Virus record (IMG/VR): IMGVR_UViG_3300028888_003544
Direction: 5' to 3' (one strand)
Source: an uncultured virus (IMG/VR IMGVR_UViG_3300028888_003544)
Lineage: Duplodnaviria > Heunggongvirae > Uroviricota > Caudoviricetes
DNA: 64,000 nucleotides
Notes under the pieces: generated by a model
What the model was told of the DNA's origin: nothing
Seen by the model: the letters and a program-made list of their open reading frames with translations, nothing else
Database searches by the model: none
In this document: positions 1,952-40,500 of the stretch, in pieces
Position numbering within the stretch: position 1 is the stretch's first letter
Layout: every line of letters begins with the position of its first letter
Program-made: the position numbers and the translations under genes

Positions 1952-2289
1952 CCTTCTTCGTCATTATTCTCCATATACCGGCTCATGCCATTGTCGTCCA
2001 TATCATCTTCTGATGCAGGATCGAAACCACGCATATTGTCATACTTCGTCGATTTGCTTGTATTTGAAGACGAAGAAGATGAATTCACTCGTGTAGACGG
2101 ATTCTCTTCTTCTTTTGATGATTCAATCTGAACGGAAATTGCTACTGTATCAGCCTGCGACTCTTCAGCTATAGGCAGACCATCAATAACCATCGGTTCC
2201 GTCTGCTTTTCTTTATTGCCACATGCCAGAAGAACTATACACGCAGATATTGCAATAAATGTCATCATCTTCTTCATCCCATCCATCAT
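1942..2289 (-). CDS. Putative lipoprotein
   Basis: KK + hydrophobic stretch + LLAC lipobox. Confidence 0.7.
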   Translation of the reverse strand: MMDGMKKMMTFIAISACIVLLACGNKEKQTEPMVIDGLPIAEESQADTVAISVQIESSKEEENPSTRVNSSSSSSNTSKSTKYDNMRGFDPASEDDMDDNGMSRYMENNDEEGWD

Positions 2290-8560: not shown

Positions 8561-10984
8561 TCATGTTATAGTTACGACGTTATTCATTTTTATTTCATTG
8601 CGAAGTAATGATTGCAAAGTGGCTAAGTCGCCAACATTGCGGAGGTTTAGCAGATCATTTATATCACTATCTTTATAGTCATCGAACAAATCTTCATCAA
8701 CATCTGCCAACAAAGTGTCTTGGAGGAATTGATCCATCATGCTGTTGAATCTCCTTGTGCCGTTTTTCGTAGCAGCCTTCTTACTCCTCATTATTGAAAG
8801 ATACGGGGATATAAGTCCAAACCCTAAATACTCAAAGAGCTTCTGTTGACAAACCTTTTGTAAAGGCAGAATCATATTTGAATCTAAATCGGCCCAATGG
8901 CAGAATTGGCTCTTTTGTATTCTATTTGACTCTTTCAATCCCTTCATGACAGAATCATATGCATTGTCAAGCCCCTCTTTTTCTATCTTTTTTGAGAGAA
9001 GAATTTTCCACAAAATAATCGATGAGTCACGCTCTTCCTCAGTGATTTTACCTAATTTGTATTGCGATTCCCGAATTACCTTTTCGCGGAAATCATCCTT
9101 TTCTGATTGTAAATCTATAAAAGACTTAAGCTCGTTTGCGACATCATCCAATTTCTGCAACCTTTTAATGTCTTGGAGAATCCCCTTTTTCTTTATTTCA
9201 GTTAGTCGGTCTATTTGTGTTATCCCATTATCTGTTTCGTAGATTACGAAGTCTGTCTCAGGAATATTGAATTTACTGCCATCATCAAATTCTCCCTTGA
9301 CATATACAACAGCTCGCGATGTGCTGCGTTCATCACTAAATTCGTATTCACCCTTAGTTCTTCTTATAGAAGGCTTAACAGGACGTGGCACTTTGCCAAA
9401 AAGTGTGTTTCTTAGTTCTGAATCCAACAAATCTGCTTTATATTTATCGTAGTCGTATTTATCCCATTCATACATGTCATTAAACGCTACTCCTTGTATA
9501 ATGTCATGAATGAACTGGTCTTTACGTACAGGTATAGGGTCAAAAGAATTTGGGAACTTTGCATATGACTCTCTGACATAATGCGGGCGATATTGCAGAA
9601 CAATTACACGATTTTCTTTAATAGCATTATTCCCGTTTATTGGCTTTAAAGCAGAGTAGTCATAATACTTCACCTCTAATCGTGGAGAATATTCCTGTAG
9701 GCAAGTTGTTAATGCTCTTTTCATGGACAAATCAATGCTCTTATCCAATACTATAGCTATTTTTAGTTTTTCTCCAAACTCATCTCGTGTTTTGCTCCTT
9801 ATCAGTTTTTCCTTAATGATACAATTATGAATTATCGGTTTAACTGCCTTGGTGGCTCTTTCTAGTTGCCATTCTATTGACATTTGATAGTCATCGTCGT
9901 TATAATCAGGAAAAGATTTGTGAAGATAACTTGAGTATAGAGATATAAGTTCGTCACTTAGGCATAAAGAGAAACGGTTACGCTCTTGAATCCTGTATTC
10001 CGATTCATCAAGTAACGAACCAAGCACATCAGAAAACAGTAACTGGTCATCAGGGATAAAAATGTGCTCATATGAATTGTTCCTACAAAACATATAGTTG
10101 CTCTCTTCCTCGTCGAAAGTAATGTAATGGGGGTATTGGTAGAATTCTTTTTCACTTACCATGGGGAATTTCCGACAGAAGCCAATCCCTTTACTTATAG
10201 AATGACGAAGATGGAAAGGCTTTTTTGAGAAAGCAAAGACGAAACAGTTCTTTAACCCCATCTTGTATGCCGTATTCCAGCGTTCGAGTGAGCTTTCTTC
10301 TAACGAATTGACTTTGTCGTTATTCGTATAGAACACAAAAAGGTTATCCACCATAACATACTCATCATCTCTTTTGTGCTCTCTAAGCTGGTCTCGTATA
10401 TCGTCAGCATCGAGATTATGGCACATAATCAAGTTCTTTTCAGTAAAGAGGTTGTCGGTTTCACCATAGAACTCAGAGATGAATTTATGCTTATCAGCTC
10501 TGGATACTTGCAAATCTCCTTCTCCGCAAATTATTATGTTCTTGTGTCCTTTCTCGCCAGAATAATTATCTGTTATACTACCCAATGTTTCTCGGATGTA
10601 TTTAGCACATGGGACAGCGTACTGTTTCATGTGTTTTTCGTCTTCTTTTGTTCGAAGTACGATATTACGCATAGACGCAGCTCTTCTTTTAAGAAGCTCT
10701 CTATTATCATCGTTGTAATACAAAGATAACTTTAGAATAAGGAATTTCAACCACACTTCGCGAGCCCATTCTGGGGCATGTGGCATATAGATGATTGGGA
10801 AACAGATTTCTCCATCTTCTGCCTTCCTATTCATATAATAATCCACAATGCTGTTCATCACGTTTATGAATCGACGAGCCGATTCCTTTTGTGTATGAAC
10901 CATTGCATTGATGATGGAATCGACCTCTGCAGATGATTGGTTGGCAATATTTTTAAATTCTTCTGTCATAGGAGCCGATATCAA
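8561..10984 (-). CDS. DrmE-like protein of unknown function
   Basis: 807 aa directly upstream of drmA, the position and size of class II drmE; C-terminal WK.LL...W......P pattern recalls DrmE. Confidence 0.5.
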   Translation of the reverse strand: MISAPMTEEFKNIANQSSAEVDSIINAMVHTQKESARRFINVMNSIVDYYMNRKAEDGEICFPIIYMPHAPEWAREVWLKFLILKLSLYYNDDNRELLKRRAASMRNIVLRTKEDEKHMKQYAVPCAKYIRETLGSITDNYSGEKGHKNIIICGEGDLQVSRADKHKFISEFYGETDNLFTEKNLIMCHNLDADDIRDQLREHKRDDEYVMVDNLFVFYTNNDKVNSLEESSLERWNTAYKMGLKNCFVFAFSKKPFHLRHSISKGIGFCRKFPMVSEKEFYQYPHYITFDEEESNYMFCRNNSYEHIFIPDDQLLFSDVLGSLLDESEYRIQERNRFSLCLSDELISLYSSYLHKSFPDYNDDDYQMSIEWQLERATKAVKPIIHNCIIKEKLIRSKTRDEFGEKLKIAIVLDKSIDLSMKRALTTCLQEYSPRLEVKYYDYSALKPINGNNAIKENRVIVLQYRPHYVRESYAKFPNSFDPIPVRKDQFIHDIIQGVAFNDMYEWDKYDYDKYKADLLDSELRNTLFGKVPRPVKPSIRRTKGEYEFSDERSTSRAVVYVKGEFDDGSKFNIPETDFVIYETDNGITQIDRLTEIKKKGILQDIKRLQKLDDVANELKSFIDLQSEKDDFREKVIRESQYKLGKITEEERDSSIILWKILLSKKIEKEGLDNAYDSVMKGLKESNRIQKSQFCHWADLDSNMILPLQKVCQQKLFEYLGFGLISPYLSIMRSKKAATKNGTRRFNSMMDQFLQDTLLADVDEDLFDDYKDSDINDLLNLRNVGDLATLQSLLRNEIKMNNVVTIT

Positions 10985-12723
10985 TTTGACGAGTTAACTT
11001 TGTCAAGAAGTAATATTTCAAGATCAAACATTGCACGAGTCATTCCGACATACAGTTCAAACTTGTCTATTTCTTCCCGGTTGTTTAACACTAATAGCAC
11101 ATGCTTTGTTTCAAGCCCTTTGTAGGACAAAATTGTAGTTAAACACAACCTGTCTTCTTCATATCTGACATTCTCGGGCTTTAATTCTTTTATAAGTTCA
11201 ATATCAGAAAGACGTTCAAATAGTTGCTTGTTATGGGAGTCCGTCAGAACTACATACTCTGACCATTTCTTTTCCCCACTTCTCAAATCTGTTAGGAGGG
11301 CCTTTATATGCTTTACCAATTCGTTAGTCCCTTGGTAGTGATGTATTTTTATAGCAGGGTCATTACTTCCCTCAATATCTCTTATTATTATGGAAGTCTG
11401 TGTTCCGTCTTCACTTTCCAAGATCTTGTTGGCTTCATCAACGATCTGCTTATTATTAGGAACTCTTTTGTTCTCATTCAAAACGAAATGGGTTCCATAT
11501 CGCGAAATGTCTTCCGCGTAACTATCTAATTCTCGAATGTCTTTTCTATATCCTTGCTCAGTATCAAAGAAAACAAGGTATCTACCTGTTCCAAGACCAT
11601 TACCGTTTATAGATGTAAGTGAATTTAGGACTTCCGCAGCCCCTTTGTCAAAAATGTCTTGCGCTTCATCAATGACAATAAAATCATATGGGATAAAGTC
11701 ATCTGATTCGCGAAGTGTGTCAAACAGTCGCTTCATTTTCTCAATAAGGGATGAAGAACCTTCCTGAAAATCATCGAAGGTGACAAACTTGTGAATTGGG
11801 TCCAGTTTCGATATAAATGAAATAAACTGATATACCTCGCAATTCTCCAGCCCGACCTTTAACAGCTGGTTGCGTACCGTCGCTGCCAGAAGATTATTCC
11901 AGCAAATATAAACGCCCCGTAAGGACTTGTATCTGCGGATAAATGCTTTCGCTATGGTTGTTTTACCAGTACCAGGGCCTCCCTCGATAATAATGCGATT
12001 GTTTTTTTCCAGACTCTTGAATGTATCGAGATTCTGAATGTTCAGCCAGTCAAGAATGCTTTGGTAACTGGTTTCTGTATAGCTGAAATCAGGGCGAATA
12101 TTTGCGACCAGATGATGAATCGCAATATCTACCTCATTTGGCTTCAAATCCTCAGTAAACCAATGTTTTCTCTCTTTGTCAATGCTAAGTACAGATAGAC
12201 AGAACTCAGCAAAAGACTCTGATTGATTCTCCTGTTGGTATGCAGACCATAATTTATATCCCATATCTAACTTGGGAAGATGGTTCGTGTGAGCCATCTT
12301 TGTGTGCGGGAACGCACATACCGTGTCTATAAAGATTTGGCTGCTATTAATAATCTTGTTGTTCAGCAACGCATATTTGTAGTCTTCAGCTTGCTGGAAA
12401 GGCGACCTGTCCATAGTCATCCCGTCTCCTTTGCTAAAGAAGAACTGACCATTTTGGATACCAACGTTACCACCTTTTACTTCAACAACGAGTGCCCCTT
12501 TTTCACATACTAAGAAGAAATCAATTTGAATTTCGGATTGTCTGCTATTACCAATGGGCAAACGCAAATCATGCCAAAAATGCCAGGTAAGATTGCTCTT
12601 TTCACAATCTTTCCATATCCTGCGATACATGTCTATTTCACCATATAATGGTGTTCCATCATTATGTTTGATGATGGTTTCCAAATTGTTCAGGTTTTTA
12701 TAGTCATGACTTATTATTGGCAT
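10981..12723 (-). CDS. NERD nuclease fused to SF1 (UvrD/DUF2075-like) helicase
   Basis: QIDFFLV...VVEVKGG...PFQQA; GGPGTGKT, IDEAQD, SYKGLE, YVGMTRA. Confidence 0.85.
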   Translation of the reverse strand: MPIISHDYKNLNNLETIIKHNDGTPLYGEIDMYRRIWKDCEKSNLTWHFWHDLRLPIGNSRQSEIQIDFFLVCEKGALVVEVKGGNVGIQNGQFFFSKGDGMTMDRSPFQQAEDYKYALLNNKIINSSQIFIDTVCAFPHTKMAHTNHLPKLDMGYKLWSAYQQENQSESFAEFCLSVLSIDKERKHWFTEDLKPNEVDIAIHHLVANIRPDFSYTETSYQSILDWLNIQNLDTFKSLEKNNRIIIEGGPGTGKTTIAKAFIRRYKSLRGVYICWNNLLAATVRNQLLKVGLENCEVYQFISFISKLDPIHKFVTFDDFQEGSSSLIEKMKRLFDTLRESDDFIPYDFIVIDEAQDIFDKGAAEVLNSLTSINGNGLGTGRYLVFFDTEQGYRKDIRELDSYAEDISRYGTHFVLNENKRVPNNKQIVDEANKILESEDGTQTSIIIRDIEGSNDPAIKIHHYQGTNELVKHIKALLTDLRSGEKKWSEYVVLTDSHNKQLFERLSDIELIKELKPENVRYEEDRLCLTTILSYKGLETKHVLLVLNNREEIDKFELYVGMTRAMFDLEILLLDKVNSSN

Positions 12724-18688: not shown

Positions 18689-18946
18689 TCAGCCGACGAT
18701 GGCCAGACGGTTGTCGGCAATATCGTACCTGACGGGATGGGCAAAGGTGATAGTCTTACCGTCATAGACAGCTGAAACATCGATACCTCTACGTTTGAAC
18801 TCGTCGATGAGGGCCTGGTCGTGATAGGCACGCATACTAGTCCAGCCAGTATTGCCGACCTGATGATTGAAAACGGTTACTAACTCGGGAATCTGCATGT
18901 CTGCAAACTGCAGGGCATACTTCGTGTAATAAATGTGCTGTTGCAT
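18689..18946 (-). CDS. Hypothetical protein
   Basis: 85 aa with its own TATCTTTG promoter at 19070-19077. Confidence 0.65.
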   Translation of the reverse strand: MQQHIYYTKYALQFADMQIPELVTVFNHQVGNTGWTSMRAYHDQALIDEFKRRGIDVSAVYDGKTITFAHPVRYDIADNRLAIVG

Positions 18947-19201
18947 AACTTTTTGTTTTTGAAGTTTATAAATGTTGCTTCCGCATCGTACTGACCACCG
19001 TGGCTAAGTTATCTTATAAGCTCGGTTGGCGAGTCACCCTTTCGGGTACTGCTCTTGATGCTTCGGGTGCAAAGATACACAAAAGTTCTGGAAAATGCTC
19101 CTATTTGATTAAAAAAGTTAAAACAGAAGCAGATTTTACAACTGGCAGTTGTTTTTCTCAATATTTTTTCGTACCTTTGCACCAGATAAAACAGATATAG
19201 T

Positions 19202-20127: not shown

Positions 20128-20165
20128 AAAAAGAGGATGACAAGGCTTTTGCACCCCGTCATCCT
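20128..20165 (-). terminator. Intrinsic terminator of the rtcB operon
   Basis: AGGATGAC/GTCATCCT stem with a T-run on the minus strand. Confidence 0.6.
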
Positions 20166-20217: not shown

Positions 20218-22482
20218 TTATCCATTCAGCAACTTCGTTACTTCTGCAGGATTAAGTGCCCACTCGTATGTGTATGCTTCATCTGCTTCCTCAGCATTCT
20301 CTACTGAAGTCAGGCTTTGAGCCTTGGCCTTCATATCAAGTAGTTCACCGATAGAGAGCTTCGACTCCAGCTTGTGGAGCAGTGCCTCGATGGACTCGCT
20401 GTTAACCCCTCTCATTGTCTGCGCAGTGAATGGCATTTCGAGCCAGATGATTTCGCGCTTTGCCACATCAAGCACACCGAATACCAGACCCTTGGAGAGG
20501 TTGCCCTCGCTAATACGAACCATGTGCTGTACACAAGACGGGTCATAGGCCACACCCTTCTCCTCAGAGATTTTCATCGGATTGGCAGAATCCATCCATC
20601 CTACTACCAGATTAGGAGAAAGAGCACCTGTGGAATAGGCATTGCAGGTGAAGGTGACATATACAGCACCAGCAGCCTCCAGCTCAGGCAGCGACAGTTC
20701 AATGTACTCAGCAGTACCAACCATTTCAGGGATGGAACGGATATCGCCAGAGTGCTTGGCACCTACACAAGTCAGATTGTAGTAGGCGCACTCTGCAATT
20801 TGGCAGTTCGGCAGTGTAACACGAGCGCTCAAGTCCATATCGAGGTGCTGCGCATGCAAGCCCTTACCCCACTGGAGGAAAAGGCGGACGGCATCACCCT
20901 CCACAGGAAATCGGGTTCCCATCAGGGCACAAGATGCATCCTGAATGGTTGCCGAACGATCGCCCACGCTGACAGGTATATTGTACAGAGCGGGATCGAT
21001 GAAGATGGTCTTCGCCTCTGTCTGCTGGATAGCAAAGCGTCTTGCCATCGAGGCCTTATAGAGGTCGTTTACGGCTCCTGTCATCGCCTTGCGGGCTTCA
21101 TCATCATAGAGAGCCAACAGCTTGTTAGGCTCAATCTGATGGGTAACACCAGTGATGGGTCTGGCCAGACGCACCTCCTTGGGGTCGAAGTATGCCTCTG
21201 CAGCATTGCCGAGTGAGAGCAGCAGACGGGCTGGCATTTTGTCGGCAACCTCCTCAAAGGCAGCCAGCACCTTGTCGCTACCGAAGCGGAGCATGGATGC
21301 GAACAGGCAACGAGCGAAGAGACCTGGACGTTCCTTCAGCAATGCCAGCGTCATGTCGGCATCGTTCTCAGAACGAGCCTTGTCAACACGGCCTTGCCAA
21401 GTGGAATAATCCTGCTTGTAGAACACATCGAGAATCTCTGCCAGATGGTCAAAGCCATTCTTACGGGAGTATTCACCCAGACGGAGGGCACGGATCATGC
21501 GAACCCACATACCACGCTTGGGATTCATATTCTCAGCTGCCTGTCTTGCAGTCATAGGAATGGCGTTCAGCCACAATGCCACACGCAGACATGCCTTGCG
21601 GTCGTACTTCAGCATCAGCTTCTTCTTCATATCCTTTGCTGCATCAGCACCTCTGTCGAGTGGCCCCCACATGTGGAAGTACAGCTTACGGGCATGGGCT
21701 ACAAGAGTCTTTGGCTCAATAATCTGCACATAGCCGGTCTTCTCGTACCAGAGGTAACGGAGCACGTCGGTAGGAGTCTTCAGCAACTTTGATGCCTCGT
21801 CTGCCTTATCCTGTTCCACCAACAACTTAATGACGAGCATAGCAGTTTCCTTCATGGTGATGTTGGCATCCTCGGGAAGAGAGAACTCACGAAGCAGTTG
21901 CTCCAATGAGTCTTTCTGAGTCCCAGCAAGAGGAGTGGACGATGCCAAAAGAGAAGTGAACACATGCTTCATGTCCTCTATGGTGAACAGACGCAGTTCT
22001 TTCAACTTGCTGGCCTGTCCCTTATAGACAAAATCGGCAGTCTCAAACGGTGTGCCACAGAACGGGCAACCATTGTAGCGCTCAATGGGGAAAGTCCCTT
22101 CAGGAATAAGGTGACCGCAAGGAAGTGTCGTTCCCTTGAAACCTGCCTCCTTACCAAAGATGTTGGCAATCCAGGTAATCAGATGGTCAGCAAGGCTCTC
22201 ACCCGTTGACACATTCCATCCCTTGACGAGTGGTGCCCAATTGAGCTTCACACCCATCACGTCGTTGATACACTCTGTAATTTCTGCAAGTCTGTCTGTG
22301 GGAACTACATTCAGAGCGTGAAGAAGTTCCTCACTGACGCAGAAACCATTCTCCTTTAACCTGGCCGCGAATGCCATCACTGGCACAGAAGCCTCGGACT
22401 TCATGTTGATGTTCTCACGATTAATGTCGAGGAACACTGCACGGTAGCGCAAAGCTACTCTTGTCAAAGTCTTGTTACTCAT
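20218..22482 (-). CDS. Prok-RING_4 / ROT(TROVE)-like repeats / TerD-like protein
   Basis: LPCGHLI...RYNGCPFCG RING; TPTDVLR; C-terminal LDMDLS...HSGDIR...AEYI TerD-like region. Confidence 0.75.
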   Translation of the reverse strand: MSNKTLTRVALRYRAVFLDINRENINMKSEASVPVMAFAARLKENGFCVSEELLHALNVVPTDRLAEITECINDVMGVKLNWAPLVKGWNVSTGESLADHLITWIANIFGKEAGFKGTTLPCGHLIPEGTFPIERYNGCPFCGTPFETADFVYKGQASKLKELRLFTIEDMKHVFTSLLASSTPLAGTQKDSLEQLLREFSLPEDANITMKETAMLVIKLLVEQDKADEASKLLKTPTDVLRYLWYEKTGYVQIIEPKTLVAHARKLYFHMWGPLDRGADAAKDMKKKLMLKYDRKACLRVALWLNAIPMTARQAAENMNPKRGMWVRMIRALRLGEYSRKNGFDHLAEILDVFYKQDYSTWQGRVDKARSENDADMTLALLKERPGLFARCLFASMLRFGSDKVLAAFEEVADKMPARLLLSLGNAAEAYFDPKEVRLARPITGVTHQIEPNKLLALYDDEARKAMTGAVNDLYKASMARRFAIQQTEAKTIFIDPALYNIPVSVGDRSATIQDASCALMGTRFPVEGDAVRLFLQWGKGLHAQHLDMDLSARVTLPNCQIAECAYYNLTCVGAKHSGDIRSIPEMVGTAEYIELSLPELEAAGAVYVTFTCNAYSTGALSPNLVVGWMDSANPMKISEEKGVAYDPSCVQHMVRISEGNLSKGLVFGVLDVAKREIIWLEMPFTAQTMRGVNSESIEALLHKLESKLSIGELLDMKAKAQSLTSVENAEEADEAYTYEWALNPAEVTKLLNG

Positions 22483-22498
22483 AACGTCTTTAATTTAA

Positions 22499-22560
22499 AA
22501 GGTAATTGACTGACAGGAACAGAACCACAATCTATTTTGAAGTATGTCAGCCTTGACCTT
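22499..22560 (-). ncRNA. Y-RNA-like hairpin, copy 2
   Basis: AAGGUCAAGG-CUGACA-UACUUC...UGUCAG-UCAAUUACCUU; covaries with the copy at 22701. Confidence 0.6.
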
Positions 22561-22576
22561 GTTAATAATGTTCTTG

Positions 22577-22697
22577 AGCTGCGAGCAGGACTCGAACCTG
22601 CGACCCATAGTCTAACAGAAATGAAGTATGTGGTGATTGGTCCTTCTCAGGAAATGTCGTCACAAACCTATTGTTCTACCAACTGAACTATCGCAGC
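22577..22697 (-). ncRNA. tRNA-like RNA with an expanded anticodon arm
   Basis: Acceptor GCTGCGA/TCGCAGC, D arm GTTC-AGTTGGTA-GAAC, T arm GCAGG-TTCGAGT-CCTGC; about 55-nt insert containing CATACTTCA in place of the anticodon loop. Confidence 0.75.
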
Positions 22698-22700
22698 ATA

Positions 22701-22778
22701 AAGAGAGGTAATTGAACAGCTAATTGGAGCCTCTTTAGCATAAGATCGAAGAAGTAAGCTGTCCTTGACCTTCTCTTT
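22701..22778 (-). ncRNA. Y-RNA-like hairpin, copy 1
   Basis: AAGGUCAAGG-ACAGCU-UACUUC...AGCUGU-UCAAUUACCU. Confidence 0.6.
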
Positions 22779-22782
22779 TATT

Positions 22783-22875
22783 TGAGCGGCGGGCTGGAAT
22801 CGAACCAGCAGTAACCATTAGGTGTAAGCAAACGTTTGGGCCATCACTTAGGCAATTGCGAAGCTTACCGCCGCT
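22783..22875 (-). ncRNA. tRNA-like RNA with acceptor and T arm but no canonical D or anticodon arm
   Basis: GCGGCGG/CCGCCGC acceptor, GCTGG-TTCGATT-CCAGC T arm, same T-C-A 3' end as the 22577 element. Confidence 0.65.
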
Positions 22876-22882
22876 ACCGTTT

Positions 22883-24055
22883 TTATCCTTTGATAACAGC
22901 CACCGGCAGGAGTCGGGTCTTAACCTTTACCAGGTCTGCCTCGTTGGCTATTACCTCCTCAATGTCCTTATAGGCTCCAGATGCCTCCTGCATATCTTCC
23001 TGAGAGCGTATGGCATGAACGATGCCCTTTGCTTCAAGTTGAGCCACTTCCTGCTGTAGATTCAGCGTTTTGATGGCCATTGAACGGGATAGGACACGAC
23101 CAGCTCCATGAGAGCATGAGCAGAATGAGTCTGGATTACCAAGACCTTCTACGATATACGATGCCGTACCCTGTGAGCCAGGGATAATACCGATGACTCC
23201 TTCGCGGGCAAGTGTCGCTCCCTTGCGGTGTACGATGACATCGTGACCGAAGTGGTGCTCTACTGCTGCATAGTTGTGAGCAATGTTTATCATCGGTTCA
23301 AACTCTATGCCAGGCAGTGAGTCTGCAAGAATCTCCTCGATACGCTCCATCATGAGCTTCCTGTTGCAGAGAGCGAAGTCTATACAGTACCTCATCTCTC
23401 TCCAGTACATCTCAAACTCCTTGCTACCTCTGGCGAGGAAAGGCAGATGTATGTCAGGCGATACATTTGAATACCATCGCGCATTGAGGGTTGCTGCGAT
23501 CTTGTTGTAGTAATCACCGACCTGCTTCCCGAGGTTGCGTGAACCAGAGTGAATCATGATCCAGAGCGTTCCCTCTTCGTCCTTTTGCAACTCAATGAAG
23601 TGGTTGCCGCCTCCTAACGTTCCGACTTCGTGAAGGATAGAGACCTGACGACGCTTAACTACTTCGAACCTGTCGAGGTCATAGCCTTCAGGCAGGTACT
23701 TCTCATCCTGAGCCTCCTTGTGGTGATCCATTCCCAAAGGGATGCGCTCACGGATTCCCTTCATGATTTGCTTGCGAAGAACCTCTACGGGTATCTCGCT
23801 TACCTTCCAGTTAGTCTTCACGGCACACATTCCGCACCCGATATCTACACCTACTGCGTTGGGAATTACTGCGTCCGTACATGCAAGCACACCACCGATA
23901 GGCATTCCCATACCAGCATGCACGTCGGGCATGATGGCCAGGTGATGGAAGAGGAAGGGCAGCGTGGTCAGGTTTTCAATCTGACGCATAGCAGAGTCTT
24001 CCACATTGTCCGTCCAAATCTTGACAGGGCGGTTGTTGATCATCTTTACTTCCAT
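22883..24055 (-). CDS. rtcB: RtcB RNA ligase
   Basis: PDVHAG, GVDIGCG, GTLGGGNHFIE, HSGSR, HNYA, HRKGAT, SHGAGR. Confidence 0.95.
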   Translation of the reverse strand: MEVKMINNRPVKIWTDNVEDSAMRQIENLTTLPFLFHHLAIMPDVHAGMGMPIGGVLACTDAVIPNAVGVDIGCGMCAVKTNWKVSEIPVEVLRKQIMKGIRERIPLGMDHHKEAQDEKYLPEGYDLDRFEVVKRRQVSILHEVGTLGGGNHFIELQKDEEGTLWIMIHSGSRNLGKQVGDYYNKIAATLNARWYSNVSPDIHLPFLARGSKEFEMYWREMRYCIDFALCNRKLMMERIEEILADSLPGIEFEPMINIAHNYAAVEHHFGHDVIVHRKGATLAREGVIGIIPGSQGTASYIVEGLGNPDSFCSCSHGAGRVLSRSMAIKTLNLQQEVAQLEAKGIVHAIRSQEDMQEASGAYKDIEEVIANEADLVKVKTRLLPVAVIKG

Positions 24056-24152
24056 TGTCTTTTCTCTTTTAATTGTTACACATCTTAAATAATAATAGTG
24101 GTGCCTCGTAGCTCATCTTCAATACGTATCCAGTTTCTTCTGAATCGCACTG

Positions 24153-24190
24153 CAAAATTAAATATATACTACGCAATCTTTCTGCGTAGT
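24153..24190 (-). promoter_or_regulatory. rtcB promoter with perfect palindromic operator ACTACGCA-N7-TGCGTAGT
   Basis: Operator at 24168-24190, 7 bp upstream of TAATTTTG (24160-24153). Confidence 0.8.
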
Positions 24191-24236
24191 TGGAAAAAAG
24201 TTATGAAAATCAGCAAAAAAAGTGCAAATTTTTAGT

Positions 24237-24274
24237 TCTGCGCAAATAGGTTGCGTAGTTTTTTCGTATCTTTG
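24237..24274 (+). promoter_or_regulatory. WYL gene promoter with operator TCTGCGCA-N7-TGCGTAGT
   Basis: Operator 7 bp upstream of TATCTTTG (24267-24274). Confidence 0.75.
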
Positions 24275-24301
24275 TGCCAACATAAGCAAAAAACGTGGAT
24301 T

Positions 24302-25327
24302 ATGCCTGCAAACAAGAATGCGTTGATTCGCTACAAAACCATTGATAATTGTCTTCGCAACCGCTATCGCCGGTGGACGCTCGAAGACCTGGTTGATGCC
24401 TGTTCGGATGCCCTCTATGATATGGAGGGAATCAACAAGGGAGTCTCTGTGCGAACCGTCCAGGGTGATATACAGATGATGCGTTCTGACAAACTTGGCT
24501 ATAATGCTCCTATCGAGGTCTATGACCACAAGTATTACCGTTATGCTGACAAAAACTATTCCATCATGGATATGCCGATGTCGCAGAACGACTACGACGT
24601 GATGCAGGAGGCCGTTGACATGCTTCGTCAGTTAGAAGACTTCGACCAGTTCTCTGAAATGTCGGATGTGGTCAGCCGTTTGCAGGATAAGTTAGCCATC
24701 AGCAGGCATAACCGCAAGCCTATCATCCATTTTGACAGTGTGCCGAATCTGGAAGGTATCCGTCTGCTTAACCCACTTTATAACTATATTGCTCATCAGC
24801 AGACGCTGCGCATCATGTACCAGTCATTCAATGCGAGAAAACCAACGGAGTTTATCCTCTGCCCGTATCTGCTGAAGGAGTTCCGAAACCGTTGGTTCCT
24901 GTTCGGTTCAAAGGCCGATGACCTGAAGCTTTTCAATCTACCTCTTGACCGAATCAAGAGTGTTGAGCCTGTGGAAGTCCCTTATCGTGAGAATCCCGAT
25001 TTCGACTCAGAACACTTCTTCGACGATGTAATAGGGGTTAGCAAGAATATCAATAACAAACCGCGATGTATCAGGTTCTGGGCGAATCGGGAGCAAAGCC
25101 ACTATATCAAGACGAAGCCCATTCATCGATCTCAGCAGGTGGTTAGCGAGAATCCGGAGGATGGAAGCTGTATCTTCCAGATAGACGTCGTCATCAACTT
25201 TGAGATGTATTCGGTCTTTATGTCTTATGGCTCTGGCATTAGGATAATCTATCCCAGAAATGCTGTCATGTACATGCGGGATAAATTCAAGGAGGCACTG
25301 GACTTATATGATGCAGCTAACGAATAA
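24302..25327 (+). CDS. wHTH-WYL-WCX transcriptional regulator
   Basis: VSVRTVQGDIQMMR HTH; PYLLKEFRNRWFL, LDRI WYL motifs; divergent from rtcB. Confidence 0.9.
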   Translation: MPANKNALIRYKTIDNCLRNRYRRWTLEDLVDACSDALYDMEGINKGVSVRTVQGDIQMMRSDKLGYNAPIEVYDHKYYRYADKNYSIMDMPMSQNDYDVMQEAVDMLRQLEDFDQFSEMSDVVSRLQDKLAISRHNRKPIIHFDSVPNLEGIRLLNPLYNYIAHQQTLRIMYQSFNARKPTEFILCPYLLKEFRNRWFLFGSKADDLKLFNLPLDRIKSVEPVEVPYRENPDFDSEHFFDDVIGVSKNINNKPRCIRFWANREQSHYIKTKPIHRSQQVVSENPEDGSCIFQIDVVINFEMYSVFMSYGSGIRIIYPRNAVMYMRDKFKEALDLYDAANE

Positions 25328-25383
25328 CGAGATTTTATATGATATAATAGTGGCCAAAGTGTTAAAAACGAAACTTTTTCAGA

Positions 25384-25421
25384 ACTACGCAAAAAGATTT
25401 CGTTCTTTATTTGTACCTTTG
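25384..25421 (+). promoter_or_regulatory. Promoter with operator ACTACGCA-N7-TTCGTTCT
   Basis: 7 bp upstream of TACCTTTG (25414-25421). Confidence 0.65.
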
Positions 25422-25450
25422 CAGCCGAATTTAAAAGAATCCTACAAGGA

Positions 25451-25600
25451 ATGAGACTATTTGTACATACACAGCCGACATTCGTTCAGAGCTATCGACG
25501 CTTTGAACGGAATGCTTATGTGCAGCAATTTTGCACACCAGCAGTCGGTGTAGGATTCCCACGACATCAAGAGCATAGTTATTGCTATCGGGCATCGTAA
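25451..25600 (+). CDS. Putative 49-aa leader peptide
   Basis: MRLFVHTQPTFVQSYRRFERNAYVQQFCTPAVGVGFPRHQEHSYCYRAS* between promoter and terminator (hand translation). Confidence 0.5.
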   Translation: MRLFVHTQPTFVQSYRRFERNAYVQQFCTPAVGVGFPRHQEHSYCYRAS

Positions 25601-25630
25601 GAGAGCCATAGATAGGAGAAAGAGCAACTG

Positions 25631-25677
25631 ATAGTTGGCAATCCGAACCGCAGAGAGGATTTCCAACTATTTTTTTT
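25631..25677 (+). terminator. Attenuator-like intrinsic terminator
   Basis: ATAGTTGG-C-AATCC / GGATT-T-CCAACTAT plus T-run, 25 nt before the ATG at 25703. Confidence 0.75.
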
Positions 25678-25702
25678 CACGCATTAAAATGAACATACAA
25701 CT

Positions 25703-26116
25703 ATGCCTGCGAATAAGAATGCCTTGATAAGGTACAAAACGATAAACAACTGTTTGAGAAACAGATACAGAAGATGGACGCTTGACGACCTCGTAGATGC
25801 CTGCTGCGATGCGCTCTACGACATGGAGGGCATCACCAAGGGTGTTTGCTCCAGGACTGTACAGATGGATATACAGATTATGAGGTCTGACAAACTGGGC
25901 TACAACGCTCCAATAGAGGTGTACGACAGGATATACTACAGATACGCCGATCCTAACTACTCCATTACTGAGATGCCTTTGTCTGTTGATGACTGCAAGC
26001 TAATAAAAGAGGCTATCGCTTTGCTTGGGAAGAAAGAAGATGCAGATAAGGCAAGAACTTTGAAAGTATTAAAGAAGGTTGAGAACAGGCTCGTATCTAT
26101 TCTGAACTTCGCATAA
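25703..26116 (+). CDS. Truncated WYL-regulator paralogue (wHTH only)
   Basis: First ~95 aa nearly identical to the 24302 protein; stops before the WYL domain. Confidence 0.8.
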   Translation: MPANKNALIRYKTINNCLRNRYRRWTLDDLVDACCDALYDMEGITKGVCSRTVQMDIQIMRSDKLGYNAPIEVYDRIYYRYADPNYSITEMPLSVDDCKLIKEAIALLGKKEDADKARTLKVLKKVENRLVSILNFA

Positions 26117-26117
26117 G

Positions 26118-26160
26118 AAAGGTTTCTTTTCAAGTTGTATTCTTGGGAAGAAGCCTTTTT
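26118..26160. terminator. Probable bidirectional terminator
   Basis: AAAGGTTTCTTTTCAAG/CTTGGGAAGAAGCCTTT hairpin between convergent units. Confidence 0.65.
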
Positions 26161-26161
26161 G

Positions 26162-26234
26162 TCTGGATAGCGAGACTCGAACTCACTCCACAAACTCCCA
26201 AAGTTCGGATGCTACCATTAAACACCATATCCAG
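26162..26234 (-). tRNA. tRNA-Pro(TGG)
   Basis: Cloverleaf; CGAAC-TTTGGGA-GTTTG; C1:G72, A73. Confidence 0.85.
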
Positions 26235-26243
26235 TTTATAATG

Positions 26244-26316
26244 TAGTCGGTACGAGGATCGAACTCGTGTGGACAGATTGAAAATCTGTAATCCTGACCT
26301 ATTAGATGAACCGACC
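26244..26316 (-). tRNA. tRNA-Glu(TTC)
   Basis: ACAGA-TTTTCAA-TCTGT; T arm ACGAG-TTCGATC-CTCGT. Confidence 0.85.
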
Positions 26317-26322
26317 TCCTTG

Positions 26323-26396
26323 GGAGTTTGACAGGATTCGAACCTGCGTAAACAAGAGCCACAACCTTGCGCCTGAACCTCTCGGCCACAAACTCC
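26323..26396 (-). tRNA. tRNA-His(GTG)
   Basis: CAAGG-TTGTGGC-TCTTG; G-1:C73. Confidence 0.85.
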
Positions 26397-26402
26397 ATAT
26401 AG

Positions 26403-26473
26403 TTGCCCCAGAAGGATTCGAACCTTCACTAGCAGAGCCAAAACCTGCTGTGCTGCCGTTATACCATAGGGCT
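26403..26473 (-). tRNA. tRNA-Gln(TTG)
   Basis: GCAGG-TTTTGGC-TCTGC; unpaired 1:72. Confidence 0.85.
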
Positions 26474-26481
26474 GTCAATCG

Positions 26482-26563
26482 TTGGGGTGGTAGGACTCGA
26501 ACCTACGAAGCCAAAAGGCGGCAGATTTACAGTCTGCTCTCGTTGCCGCTGGAGAACACCCCA
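26482..26563 (-). tRNA. tRNA-Tyr(GTA)
   Basis: GCAGA-CTGTAAA-TCTGC; long variable arm. Confidence 0.85.
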
Positions 26564-26571
26564 ATATTGAG

Positions 26572-26644
26572 TGGAGCCTCGTGGAGTTGAACCACGTTCT
26601 CAGGATTTTCAGTCCTGCGCATACACCAAGTCTGCCAAAGCTCC
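26572..26644 (-). tRNA. tRNA-Phe(GAA)
   Basis: CAGGA-CTGAAAA-TCCTG. Confidence 0.85.
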
Positions 26645-26652
26645 CTGACTTG

Positions 26653-26724
26653 TTGCCCCAGATGGATTCGAACCACCACCTCCAGATCCAGAATCTGACG
26701 TGCTAACCATTACACCATAGGGCA
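26653..26724 (-). tRNA. tRNA-Gln(CTG)
   Basis: TCAGA-TTCTGGA-TCTGG. Confidence 0.85.
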
Positions 26725-26731
26725 GTAACTG

Positions 26732-26806
26732 TGACTCGTGAGAGACTCGAACTCCCGACCCTGACGTTCGTAGCGTCATGCTCTAATCCAACTGAGCTAA
26801 CGAGCC
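26732..26806 (-). tRNA. tRNA-Arg(ACG)
   Basis: TGACG-CTACGAA-CGTCA. Confidence 0.9.
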
Positions 26807-26834
26807 TATTTTGCTTCCTTAATGATTTCGTGTG

Positions 26835-26872
26835 CAAAGGTACAATAGCCAAATGAAGCCTTTTTTCGTAGC
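26835..26872 (-). promoter_or_regulatory. tRNA-array promoter with degenerate operator GCTACGAA-N7-TTCATTTG
   Basis: Site 26872-26850, 7 bp upstream of TACCTTTG (26842-26835). Confidence 0.6.
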
Positions 26873-37527: not shown

Positions 37528-40500
37528 TTAAAGATGCATCGTGCGTTTCGGCTCAGACTCCGACTCGGCGACCTTTACCACGTTCTTCGTCTCTGCTACC
37601 GGCTCGGTCTGCTGTTGCGACTGGTTTTCGCAGAGCTTGTTCTGAAAAAACTGGGCAGCAAGCGCCACCTTGAACGCCTCACGGTCTTCAGAGAGCCAGA
37701 ACCGCTGAATCTGCGACTTGCTGAGTTCGACGGGTTTCTGACGTTCGCCATCGATGGTGGCAAACATAATCGTCGCTCCCTCATGGTATCTGTCCTTGGT
37801 GATGTTCACCTTCGAGATACGCGAGAGGTCGGCTCCTTCAGGAACCTTGGGCATCAGCACGTCAGCCTTGCTCTCAGGATGGTTGACCACCATCTGGTAG
37901 TATTTCTGCGCCAGCTCACAGCGCACCGTGTCAAACTCCGGCGTGCGGAACGACTGGAAGAAACGGTCTATATCCTCGCGCTCTGGGTAGATGGTGAAGG
38001 CTTTCTCGTCAGCAGGCTTCACATAGAGCACATAACGGTCACGATCGTCACGGGTCATAGATACCTGCTCGAAGGAAACCGAACGGCTCACTTCCTCGGC
38101 AACGGCACCTTGGGCGACAGTCTGTGGCTCTTCGCCACGCATGGCCGCATAATCGATATCCTCACCTTTCATGATCTTACCCAACACCCGGATGGCATCG
38201 TTCATGTCATGCTCCAGGTGCTCCATCAACTGCGGATTCTCCTGCAACTGCTGCTGCCAGTCGGGAATCATCGACAGACTGTCACTCGACAGCTGGGCTG
38301 GCAGATTCTGACGGGCCATGATAACTCCCGCCGCCAGTTCCTGGACCAAGCGGTCATACCGATGGGCTTCTGCAGGTGTCATGTCCGGCTGGTTCTGACG
38401 GTTCAGACGCTGGGGCGCACCTGTATAGGCTATGGCGGCACGATAGATATCGTTGGCCCGCTCGATAGCTGTTTCTTTCTCTTCCCCAACAGCGGCTTTG
38501 CGCGAGTTGTTAATGAGCAGGCCATCGTCATTGCTGTCATAATCCGTCAGCAACAGCGGGTTCACCTGTATGCGGTCATCACTTTTCTTGAGAGCTGTCA
38601 CCAGTTCATCCACTTGGTCGTAGATGGGCTTCGCTTCCTTCTCATTCAGTTTCGGGTCAACGAGCGCATCACAGATGGCAATGCGTAATCCAGCCCTTAC
38701 CAGTTTCGGCAGATAGATATCCAGCGAATGGTGAGGGAAAGAGGTGTAGTCAAACTTCTTTCTTCCCGCAGACTGCTTTGACAGGGCGATTCCGAGGATA
38801 CGCGACGCCTTTTCGGCATCCTCGCCAAAGGCTTCGTAGAAGTCGCCGTTGCGCATCAGGATCATCGCATAAGGATGCTTTTCCTTCAGCTCCTGAACCT
38901 GATGATAGGCCTGGGCCTCGCGGTTTAGAGCCACTACCTTGGGACACTCACCCTTCGTATCGTTCTGGAGCACCATAGTCAGAGCCTCGTAAGGACGGGA
39001 CAGACGAGAGGCAGTTACCACATCATCACTCAGGTTGCAACATTTGTTCATCCAAACGCCTTTGTTGGTTTTCGCCATCTCCAAGGCACCGACAATCAAA
39101 CCGGCTGTCACTACGGCTGCTGCGACGTCCTTGCCCGAAGACTCTTTAGCCTCACGGTCACGTTTCTCATCCTCTTTCTTCTTGATCTCATCGAGGGCTT
39201 TCTGGTCTTCTGCCTTCTGCTCTCTCTCCTTCTTCAGGTTTTCATCAAGGGCCTTTTGCTCCTCCTTTTTCTCTTTCTTATCCTCTGTAACGATATTGGC
39301 TTTTTCTTCCCGGAGCTGTTTGATGGTAGCCAATCGGACAATATCCATTTTCACACAGTCTGTTGGCTTGCCAAAGGCAGGGTTCTGGTAAAAGCTGGGG
39401 CTTTCTTCACGAGGACTGAAGATATGACCAGGATATTTATCCATAAACGCCTGAACATCCTCTGTTTCCTCTGCATCGAGATTGCCGAAGTCGCCATTGA
39501 TGATGGCAGAAAGGGCATATTCTGGCACCTTCACAGTGTCCACCTGCACAGTTATCTGCTGATCCTCTGAGGTCAGCACTTCATCCATCAACCTGATTAC
39601 CTGTTGACGGGCTTCCTCCGGCAGGTCTTTCAGATAGAGTTGGTTACGGTGGTCGTAGGCATCCTCGCGATTCTCAAACACCTCGATGTCATCAGCAACG
39701 GCCATAGCATGACTAAGCACCGTATCCTTTGTTTCCGAACCATCAAAGAACTTAGGAACCATAACAGGTACACGCAGCGCCAGTGGGAGATAATCCAGCT
39801 TTGCATCATTGGCCAAACCACATATATGCTCCACTGCGGATCTCTCCTGAGAGCTTTTCAGTCCGTCAGACAGCTCCTTCAGTACTTGTTTCTGCACTTC
39901 TGGAGAGAAGTCCGTGAGCATCATGGCACCTTCACTTTTCGCAGCTGCATCCATGCCCTCATAGAGCATGATATACGGGGGATCGACAGTCACAGCACTG
40001 TACTTTTCCATCTCACCTGTATCTTTACGCAGGAGTTCTGCCTCCTTTAGCAAGAAGACTGGCGTATTGGTTAGCTCTGCGTCTTTATACTGCTGCACCA
40101 CTTCGTCATGCTGTCTGGTGAGCTGGCTTTTCTGACTATCCTCTTCGCGCCACTTGACATCACGAGCCAACCACTCAGCCGTATTCATGGAATAATACGG
40201 ATTGATAGGGTTGATATCCACAGGGATGCCGTTTATCTCCAGTCGGTTCTCATTGAGGACATTGAAAAGAGCATCTTCCTTCACACCCTCACCACCATAT
40301 TCAAGCAAGATATCGAGGTCACTGCCCTCCTTGACTTCACCTCTGGACCGGCTGCCGATGATGGTCACCTGCTTCACATAAATGTCTTCACCAGGGAAGT
40401 CTTCTGCCAGTTTCTCATTCACATAGTCCTCGACCATCTGCTTGACCTCATACTGCGTATAATCCTCCAGCCCCTGAACCTTCGGGCCAAGTCTTAGTGG

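Follow-up and report, generated by a model that had tools for sequence, protein, structure and literature searches.

A Ro60-like protein gene, rtcB and a tRNA array with a conserved leader behind one operator on a Bacteroidales mobile element

The DNA analyzed here, referred to below as the window, is a 64,000 nucleotide (nt) stretch of the IMG/VR record IMGVR_UViG_3300028888_003544, in which positions 20,218 to 26,872 hold an rtcB gene, a gene for a 754 amino acid (aa) protein, four structured RNAs, two related regulator genes and an array of tRNA genes. The carrier is a Bacteroidales mobile element of gut and rumen, and these genes lie together on a conjugative/defence island. Our best reading of the region, held at close to even confidence, is that of two separable cassettes behind one operator, the first a Ro60-like repair ribonucleoprotein (RNP) with RtcB and the second a tRNA supply gated by a leader peptide. 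It is drawn from the anatomy of the locus, its conservation, covariation in its RNAs, the match between leader codons and array tRNAs, and the geometry of the operators.

On the minus strand rtcB, the four structured RNAs and the 754-aa gene (called the RING gene below) make up one operon that ends in a terminator-like hairpin. The gene for a winged helix-turn-helix (wHTH)-WYL-WCX regulator diverges from rtcB and is followed by the gene for a truncated paralogue, with which the tRNA array is convergent. All the parts listed in the initial annotation of this DNA, which was made from the letters alone (rtcB, a RING/TROVE-like/TerD gene, four noncoding RNAs, the WYL regulator, its paralogue and eight tRNA genes), are present where it had placed them. 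The features are as follows, ORF standing for open reading frame.

20134..20165 (-): terminator-like hairpin, 13 pairs and a T-run, closing the rtcB-RNA-RING operon
20218..22482 (-): 754-aa zinc-knuckle/TROVE-like/TerD gene (Pfam, AlphaFold2 (AF2) model, fold search)
22496..22563 (-): Y-like RNA 2 (covariance model R1, 66.2 bits)
22577..22697 (-): tRNA-like RNA 2 (Rfam tRNA, 54.3 bits)
22702..22775 (-): Y-like RNA 1 (covariance model R1, 51.9 bits)
22785..22874 (-): tRNA-like RNA 1 (tRNA-Sec, 24.2 bits, E 0.019, a weak match; folding z -3.48)
22883..24055 (-): rtcB, RNA 3'-phosphate/5'-OH ligase family (Pfam RtcB, 369.9 bits)
24153..24189 (-): rtcB operon promoter; operator CTACGCAGAAAGATTGCGTAG at 24169-24189, 8-nt spacer, -7 box TAATTTTG at 24153-24160
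24238..24274 (+): WYL promoter; operator CTGCGCAAATAGGTTGCGTAG at 24238-24258, 8-nt spacer, box TATCTTTG at 24267-24274
24302..25327 (+): wHTH-WYL-WCX regulator, 341 aa from ATG (Pfam, PADLOC)
25385..25421 (+): leader promoter; half-site CTACGCAAAAAGATTTCGTTC at 25385-25405, 8-nt spacer, box TACCTTTG at 25414-25421
25437..25558 (+): structured 5' domain of the leader, helix P1 with hairpins P3 and P4 inside (z -4.37)
25451..25600 (+): leader ORF of 49 codons, its stop codon in the loop of hairpin P5
25630..25677 (+): leader terminator GAUAGUUGG..CCAACUAU followed by U8, 25 nt 5' of the paralogue ATG (z -3.45)
25703..26116 (+): 137-aa wHTH and linker paralogue without WYL and WCX (no Pfam match)
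26161..26806 (-): array of 8 tRNA genes (ARAGORN, Rfam)
26835..26871 (-): array promoter; half-site CTACGAAAAAAGGCTTCATTT at 26851-26871, 8-nt spacer, box TACCTTTG at 26835-26842

The 754-aa protein and its RNA partners

The 754-aa protein is laid out as an N-terminal zinc knuckle, a helical core (residues ~160-505) and a TerD domain (~526-698). RING models match it below their cut-offs, at 24.1 bits against 27 for Prok-RING_4 (PF14447), which also matches 39 of 56 relatives at E<=1, and at 178 bits against 600 for NCBIfam RING_SCO0854 (MXAN_6230/SCO0854 RING); the family has one invariant zinc-knuckle set only, CxH...CxxC with C122, C139 and C142. The AF2 model built from 56 diverse members (pLDDT 91.3, pTM 0.90) has a TerD (PF02342) beta-sandwich at residues 526-698, with Z 14.3 to 2qz7_B (root mean square deviation (rmsd) 2.8, 152 residues aligned), Z 12.8 to 2kxt and a Foldseek E of 7e-5 to 3ibz, and Pfam TerD itself is matched by nine of the 56 members (best E 4e-6). 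Xenopus Ro60, Deinococcus Rsr and a phage Ro60 rank 3, 4 and 8 against the whole model (Z 7.6, 7.2 and 6.3, ~300 residues aligned). When the core is folded alone (residues 160-505, pLDDT 87.6), the three Ro60 entries take ranks 1-3 of 48,161 chains (Z 7.9, 7.5 and 6.7 with 246, 218 and 266 residues aligned), and all other rows align only about 100 residues. The TROVE-like/TerD description that the protein had been given from its sequence is supported, TerD being its best fold match and Ro60 the next.

The family is large, with 4262 relatives of the protein among 7998 scored candidates (the nearest 120 are 98-100% identical), 1559 cluster representatives that match it at E<=0.001 and at least 583 confirmed stretches with relatives of the gene in species genomes. 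A phage origin was rejected, as 2.9 million viral contigs hold only two relatives of this protein and three close ones of the paralogue. We note that genes 79-81% identical to that of the window are present in L031 and L036 (loci compared here carry labels of this form), whose bins are labelled Lachnospiraceae and Flexilinea; either the element has been transferred beyond Bacteroidota or it has been mis-binned.

Conserved across 80 related loci (the RING loci) are the 110 nt 5' of the start of the 754-aa gene, in the order AAGGUC(C)AAG, helix, (A/C)UUACUUC, a stretch of variable sequence, the return strand of the helix and CAAUUACCUUUU. Y-like RNA 2, which ends ~14 nt 5' of the ATG, consists of P1 (AAGGU/ACCUU), an internal loop (CAAG/CAAUU), a covarying helix P2 and an AUACUUC motif. 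In an alignment of 59 sequences 98% of the P2 cells are paired, six of the seven pairs change on both sides, and the covariation score of 0.52 is reached by none of 500 shuffles (slid controls gave 0.04-0.15). The covariance model R1, made from this alignment and run over both strands of 1.34 Mb, gave 134 matches, all of them on the gene strand just upstream of a 754-aa-type gene, and realignment of this match set leaves the P2 covariation picture unchanged. The matches are in 76 of the 80 RING loci and in the window, with one to four copies each (two to four in tandem in 42 of 77 sources), and the locus L001, which has no RING gene, has none. No described Rfam family takes in any of the four RNAs of the window, and even at lax thresholds Rfam gave none for the Y-like RNAs or for the leader discussed below.

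Two of the four RNAs in the window are such Y-like copies and the other two are tRNA-shaped. The RNA at 22577-22697 has acceptor, D and T arms, and since 52 nt replace its anticodon loop and ARAGORN makes no call on it, it is tRNA-like and not a tRNA. tRNA-like RNA 1 has only a 7-bp acceptor stem and a T arm, and its body is a permuted Y-like module, ..CAAUUGCC-loop-GGCCCAAA..GCUUACACC. Read by eye against the hairpin consensus, both tRNA-like inserts are the Y-like module in circular permutation (return strand, CAAUU, short looped helix, CCAA, forward strand, UACNCC), and homologues in other loci keep the permuted module and have acceptor stems that covary, again by eye. A cognate structured RNA with a conserved terminal helix adjoins the 754-aa-type gene as it does Rsr, and it is likely that the protein forms a Ro60-like RNP with these four RNAs. 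We note that in L009, L023 and L057 the spacer that separates the RING gene from rtcB, or from what is left of rtcB, has a complete tRNA-Phe(GAA) of the array lineage (8167-8240, 2424-2497 and 9447-9520, respectively) where one tRNA-like RNA would be expected, and that L009, L023 and L024 have a mini tRNA-like element of 76-80 nt (TCATGG...CCGTGAG).

The rtcB gene product matches RtcB (PF01139) with 369.9 bits against a cut-off of 27, and among proteins of known structure its best match is 1uc2 (E 5e-41). Of the 46 ORFs of the window that were scanned, none matches RtcA, RtcR or TROVE in Pfam, in agreement with the initial annotation, which had described the module as one without RtcR, RtcA and a canonical Ro60.

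The shared operator, the leader ORF and the tRNA array

The regulator that diverges from rtcB matches WYL (PF13280) with 43.1 bits and WCX (PF25583) with 31.8 bits, both over the cut-offs (PADLOC WYL, E 8.7e-21); it starts at ATG 24302, not at TTG 24251, and a sequence search found no solved relative. A 21-nt operator, CTACGCA-N7-TGCGTAG, is present exactly 8 nt 5' of a TAnnTTTG (-7) box at all four promoters. The rtcB site matches 14 of the 14 palindrome positions and the WYL site 13, and as the leader and array sites match 11 and 9 they are half-sites, which keep the left half and the A-rich centre. One operator at one position in four promoters, as noticed earlier, is therefore correct, with the refinement that two are half-sites. 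Operator and box are arranged in this way in related DNA too, at promoters of these four kinds; among the 1134 TAnnTTTG boxes there, 57 have the site, and nearly all of the 57 are beside module genes. With the spacing left free, 8 nt was found in 42 palindromic and 57 half-site distinct contexts and other spacings in 7 and 7, a count in which palindromes are also scored once on the strand that has no box. The site is also found 5' of RING genes that have no WYL gene in the flank (L014, L027, L028, L040, L054, L056 and L076). The concentration of the site at module genes and the 8-nt spacing put the arrangement beyond chance, and very probably the four promoters answer to regulators of a single family. 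Among WYL regulators, PafBC and DriD activate transcription and bind in place of the -35 element; the fixed geometry here, in which the operator replaces the -33 element, fits a blocking repressor and a polymerase-touching activator equally.

The 137-aa paralogue is 68% identical to the N-terminus of the WYL regulator, and ~270 nt separate it from the leader promoter. Among 88 paralogue/array cassettes the leader ORF is intact in 84 by pattern and in one more by eye, and in the remaining three the flank (<160 nt) is too short to score it. Its versions (60 distinct in DNA, 53 in peptide, 48-56 codons) have an unusual composition: P, R, T, E, H, Q, Y, F and S make up 70.6% of leader residues versus 40.8% in seven window genes, and Lys and Leu only 0.6% and 2.4%. 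In the window leader 34 of the 48 residues after Met belong to array isotypes (binomial p 2e-5), and 28 of 48, versus 31%, to the seven isotypes of its own array. The codons follow suit, with leader and gene counts, respectively, of 231:13 and 61:72 for Thr ACA/ACG, 134:9 and 47:71 for Pro CCA/CCG, 192:9 and 50:60 for Ser TCA/TCG and 264:26 and 137:51 for Arg CGN, so that leader codon choice matches the array anticodons. Among 47 distinct leader/array combinations six of eight testable isotypes (Pro, Thr, Ser, Tyr, Glu and Gln) are commoner in leaders whose array has that tRNA; because the composition and co-variation tests ignore kinship among cassettes, their p-values are too small and the effect sizes count for more. 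Entropy is near equal at the three codon positions (0.60/0.57/0.72), which argues that frame and composition are kept and not the protein sequence.

In helix P1 of the leader the bases just 5' of the AUG (GAAUCCUAC) pair with GUAGGAUUC in codons 34-36. P1 and P3 covary (P3 changes from AU to GC in 10/28 and from UA to CG in 4/28), and in 44 of the 45 distinct versions the stop codon is found in the loop of P5. The terminator that follows (-16.4 kcal/mol, z -3.45, then U8) is conserved in 28/28 aligned leaders; its loop of more than 8 nt is the reason that a simple terminator scan misses it. Pairing of the P1 3' strand with the terminator 5' arm provides a plausible candidate antiterminator, and in the lineage of L158 a matching change is seen by eye on both of its strands; no P5-based antiterminator was found by eye. 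The description of the paralogue as leader-gated can thus be sharpened to a conserved ORF in the codons of its own array followed by a terminator, and we predict, with somewhat better than even confidence, that the ORF is translated and gates the paralogue.

The array is transcribed in the order Arg(ACG), Gln(CTG), Phe, Tyr, Gln(TTG), His, Glu(TTC), Pro(TGG); ARAGORN calls all eight genes, and their Rfam RF00005 scores are 29.3-64.8 bits (gathering score 29). An array is found 3' of the paralogue in 85 of the 88 cassettes, and the arrays, of 3-13 genes, are deletion variants of one ordered set: Pro, Arg(CCG), Thr, Glu, His, Arg(TCG/CCG), Gln, Tyr, Phe, Gln, Ser, Arg(ACG), Ser. They encode tRNAs of a lineage apart, with ~76-82% identity to the housekeeping tRNAs of a carrier genome where a match exists. 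Nuclease-proof anticodon loops were considered and rejected, as the array tRNAs have loops of the ordinary kind, in which no position other than 37 or 38 departs from the housekeeping tRNAs. We note that the slot after His is occupied by a Gln-like tRNA body with a varying anticodon, TCG, CCG or TCA, and that the UGA-reading TCA form, found in nine human-gut cassettes (L124, L131, L135, L138, L140, L145, L147, L148 and L159), could be an opal suppressor on a mobile element.

Proposed mechanism, linkage of the cassettes and alternatives

In the mechanism that we favour, the signal, the sign of the regulation, the binding of RNA by protein and the processing of the RNAs are inferred. One promoter of the repair cassette would serve rtcB, two tRNA-shaped RNAs, two hairpin RNAs and the 754-aa protein. 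The tRNA-like elements would let tRNA-processing enzymes release the four RNAs from the transcript, and the module P1/loop/P2/UACUUC, common to all four, would be what the ring protein recognizes, in the way that Ro60 recognizes Y RNAs; the RNP and RtcB would then act on broken or misfolded RNA. The divergent wHTH-WYL-WCX regulator would bind the palindromic operator in place of the -33 element and, by analogy, may answer to a nucleic-acid ligand; that this ligand is damaged RNA is less likely than not. In the supply cassette a second copy of the operator precedes the leader with its ORF of array codons, the terminator and the sensor-less wHTH paralogue, and the array promoter has the same half-site. 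If array tRNAs became scarce, through an anticodon nuclease or translation stress, ribosomes would stall in the leader, the strand that closes P1 would pair with the 5' arm of the terminator, transcription would read through, and the paralogue so made would switch on the array and its own promoter. We have rather less than even confidence that stalled ribosomes induce the paralogue and that it is an activator of the array. We are more doubtful of a broader joint reading, by which the locus would be a portable kit that sustains translation under tRNA attack: the leader would be an in-cis codon meter through which the sensor-less WYL copy calls up spare tRNAs, the ligand-sensing copy would call up RtcB and a Ro60-like RNP with tRNA-shaped guide or decoy RNAs, and the whole would be a repair-and-replace answer to anticodon nucleases on Bacteroidales conjugative elements of gut and rumen.

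Several observations, besides the kinship of the leaders mentioned above, weigh against the two-cassette reading. The Z-scores to Ro60, a ring of HEAT repeats, are moderate, with rmsd 7-10 Å, and since the aligner cautions against Z below ~13 for helical repeats they may reflect a common arrangement only; Pfam TROVE matches none of the 56 family members at E<=1, a profile search of PDB sequences with the family does not find Ro60, and the YrlA model (RF02553) scores 13.9 bits (gathering score 69, E 7.7). Foldseek with the whole model gave TerD only, Ro60 surfacing solely with the exhaustive aligner, and in place of a vWA domain with a metal site the C-terminus has TerD. With moderate Z-scores and no TROVE signal at the sequence level, the 754-aa protein is therefore called Ro60-like in predicted fold and in context, and not a member of the Ro60 family. 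In the supply cassette Phe and Arg show no co-variation between leader and array among the 47 distinct combinations, the P1 3' strand is the top upstream partner of the terminator 5' arm in only 40 of 67 leaders, the antiterminator pairing is weaker than the terminator (mean -10.8 vs -17.1 kcal/mol), and nothing in the ordinary anticodon loops marks the array tRNAs as nuclease-proof. As to linkage, 77 of 80 further metagenomic cassettes have no WYL, RING or rtcB gene within 3 kb, and the other three include one identical to the window; a cassette is within 10 kb in only 6 of the 80 RING loci, at two different positions; and the paralogue is found in 8 of 201 related genomes, of which two have a RING gene and two a close WYL orthologue, with the reservation that metagenome-assembled genomes are incomplete and a gene not found in them may be present. 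Contigs from RNA libraries of four studies span the operon and the leader, and being assembled contigs they give neither levels nor transcript ends; nothing is concluded from the depth of 23.4 for a leader contig versus 4.8 for a paralogue contig in one study, as contigs cannot rank the parts and DNA may have been present.

The Y-like RNAs and the RING gene are more closely tied. WYL and rtcB genes are the only recurrent neighbours of the RING gene (in 21 and 14, respectively, of the 75 RING loci in which neighbours were counted), most RING loci have neither nearby, and in the 201 genomes RING is found in 14, a close WYL orthologue in 13 and both in 7 (~1 expected). Where a cassette adjoins the RING/WYL unit it is 5' of WYL (window, L009) or 3' of RING (L022/L024), and it does so also in L045-47; in the Segatella record L001 a distance of 11 kb separates rtcB and a cassette, and in a Xylanibacter ruminicola isolate array and module are 50 kb apart on the same contig. 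By these counts the Y-like RNAs belong closely with RING, in a unit that WYL and rtcB often accompany and that the array cassette, with the same operator, adjoins only now and then. We note that rtcB is a fragment or interrupted in L009 (7824-8030), L023 (2088-2243) and L003 (1490-2595), where the RNAs, RING and WYL are intact, and this argues that the Ro60-like unit is independent of the neighbouring rtcB. The initial annotation had proposed one mobile module and had named absence of the array from the module in related genomes as evidence to the contrary; with 77 of 80 cassettes alone and RING in two of eight cassette genomes, this is partly what is found. Its inventory, fold assignment, operator, published precedent and leader gating are supported, and the single module is too strong a claim.

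The switch might also have the opposite sign, which we think unlikely. The paralogue would then sense no ligand and would repress both the array and its own promoter, being made while the leader is translated smoothly; when tRNAs were scarce its synthesis would stop, and its decay would leave the array derepressed until supply was restored. Such a closed-loop homeostat suits cassettes that mostly have no full WYL regulator and in which the paralogue must act alone, an operator that overlaps the core promoter, the usual position for a repressor, and codons that match the array's own products as a feedback meter would; the stop codon in P5 also means that a terminating ribosome would remodel the RNA before the terminator. 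On the other hand, no pairing was found by which melting of P5 blocks the terminator (by eye, the P5 3' strand resembles the terminator 5' arm), and exact 8-nt spacing in four unrelated promoters is a requirement of activators, which PafBC and DriD are. Leaders of the trp and his type, which work by transcription attenuation, turn genes on when ribosomes stall. The same direction is described for PA5471.1 (PMC12057347).

It is improbable that the Y-like hairpins are instead cis-acting operators in the 5' untranslated region, like ribosomal-protein leaders, through which the 754-aa protein or another factor controls translation of the 754-aa gene, the tRNA-like elements being processing or stability signals only. 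The last hairpin does end 10-20 nt 5' of the start codon in most loci, all 134 R1 matches are upstream on the coding strand, and RNA-library contigs run unbroken from rtcB through the RNAs into the 754-aa gene. A cis operator accounts less well for two to four tandem copies in 42 of 77 sources and for a module that is also permuted inside tRNA scaffolds with 7-bp acceptor stems, the features that make M. smegmatis YrlA an RNase P substrate; Y RNAs, moreover, adjoin Rsr genes in the same way (PMC4201824).

No more probable is it that the array is ordinary mobile cargo fitted to the codon usage of the element, with rtcB adjacent by accident and the leader ORF a small protein or a by-product of RNA structure: cassettes usually without repair genes, tRNAs of foreign lineage with ordinary anticodon loops, and a window that is a patchwork of defence and conjugation genes would suit this, but it must contend with an operator that the rtcB and WYL promoters have too, with the same spacing, cassettes beside the RING/WYL unit in at least three different arrangements, the array-type tRNA-Phe in three rtcB-RING spacers, the 11 kb between rtcB and a cassette in L001, codon-position entropies that speak against a folded leader protein, and a codon-level match of leader and array that is hard to obtain by accident.

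Known systems, surroundings and significance

The closest known counterpart of the repair cassette is the Rsr/Y RNA system. The Salmonella rsr-yrlBA-rtcBA operon runs under RtcR (PMC4201824; PMC7790460), which senses tRNA fragments (PMC7790460), and YrlA mimics tRNA, its M. smegmatis form being cut by RNase P and receiving CCA (PMC4201824). Here too a helical protein, a candidate for the ring shape, is encoded beside its own structured RNAs and rtcB, and two of these RNAs are tRNA mimics; as in YrlA, a terminal helix is interrupted by an internal loop, whose 5' strand GGUC(C)AAG resembles the GNCGAAN0-1G motif (PMC4201824), and the regulator would be of a nucleic-acid-sensing type. Unlike Rsr, the protein has TerD in place of vWA, an extra zinc-knuckle N-terminus and no sequence-level TROVE; unlike YrlA, the tRNA-like forms are inverted, the RNA ending in the acceptor stem with the protein module at the anticodon arm; and unlike the Rtc system, there is a WYL regulator in place of the sigma-54 activator RtcR, and no RtcA.

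For the supply cassette the initial annotation had pointed to Anabaena, where a trn operon and rtcB are indeed co-regulated, by a different regulator, the repressor TrcR (PMC8421152, PMC10272220). The silent plasmid-type L-array of Anabaena PCC 7120 and rtcB share a promoter motif and answer to translational stress, and a role in spare tRNAs plus repair has been proposed for that regulon (PMC8421152, PMC10272220). The arrays here are smaller (3-13 tRNAs vs 23-43), the operator is a dyad at -33 versus direct repeats over the -10 box, and the regulator is wHTH-WYL whereas TrcR is a ribbon-helix-helix (RHH) repressor; no RHH regulator was found here. A leader ORF and terminator gate the truncated regulator in the predicted scheme, and the available portions of PMC8421152 and PMC10272220 mention neither leader nor attenuation. 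In P. aeruginosa production of the anti-repressor ArmZ is gated by the leader PA5471.1, which responds to stalled ribosomes; there also a short ORF precedes a terminator, its translation decides read-through, stalling is the signal, and the gated product acts on the HTH of a repressor (PMC12057347). The leader described here differs from PA5471.1 and from the trp and his leaders in that its regulatory codons are those of about nine isotypes, equal to the repertoire of the neighbouring array, and not of one amino acid, in that the gated gene encodes a truncated paralogue of a WYL regulator, and in that it folds as a three-way junction that sequesters its own start region.

Other WYL regulators are PafBC, DriD and BrxR/CapW. 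The present regulator shares with WYL regulators the wHTH, WYL and WCX domains, a divergent promoter, probably autoregulated, whose operator is a dyad, and a location in a defence island (PMC4012209). It differs from known ones in having an RNA-repair operon and tRNA genes as predicted targets, and a natural sensor-less paralogue under separate control. Makarova et al. 2014, in the available text, link rtcB only to the CARF regulator RtcR and not to WYL (PMC4012209). Searches of an open-access library for rtcB with WYL, for TROVE with TerD and for a tRNA array with a leader peptide or attenuation gave no description of this system; the Ro60-like core match, the covarying Y-like RNA with its permuted copies and the leader ORF in array codons are new here. 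A 2016 abstract by Burroughs and Aravind reportedly treats TROVE and SPFH modules, Y RNAs and a novel tRNA-like RNA, and may overlap parts of this locus.

The rest of the window includes genes for DISARM DrmA/DrmB, a NERD helicase, PDC-S01, PDC-S10, RadC, an IS110 transposase and two more WYL regulators. DrmA and DrmB are encoded beside SIR2 and NERD-helicase genes (2286-8559, 253-1008 and 10981-12723, all minus strand) in a defence island that flanks the module. A 3236-aa polyvalent protein with Eco57I-type methylase, helicase, nucleotidyltransferase and MutS-I parts, of a type usual on conjugative elements, is encoded at 37528-47238 (-). Just 3' of the module a SAM-I/IV riboswitch match at 18945-19066 (-), with 47.4 bits against a gathering score of 41.1, precedes a small ORF (18689-18946) that has no Pfam match. 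Two WYL-WCX regulators, at 55806-56714 (-) and 59268-60170 (+), lie in a stretch of 35-38% GC and adjoin a YopX-like gene, a metallo-beta-lactamase-fold gene and a PDC-S10 phosphoesterase; they are probably part of another WYL-controlled defence unit.

The Ro60-like family is very common, unannotated, and has a clean covarying RNA partner, and the locus ties a WYL regulator to RNA repair instead of to DNA damage or phage defence. Little is understood of bacterial Ro60/Y RNA systems, of RtcB repair, of "cryptic" tRNA arrays or of the sensing of tRNA loss, and the locus also has a leader ORF with a codon set that mirrors its array. If the reading given here is true, tRNA arrays of mobile elements would be regulated supplies and not passive cargo, and Ro60-like RNPs would be far commoner in Bacteroidota than TROVE-based searches show.

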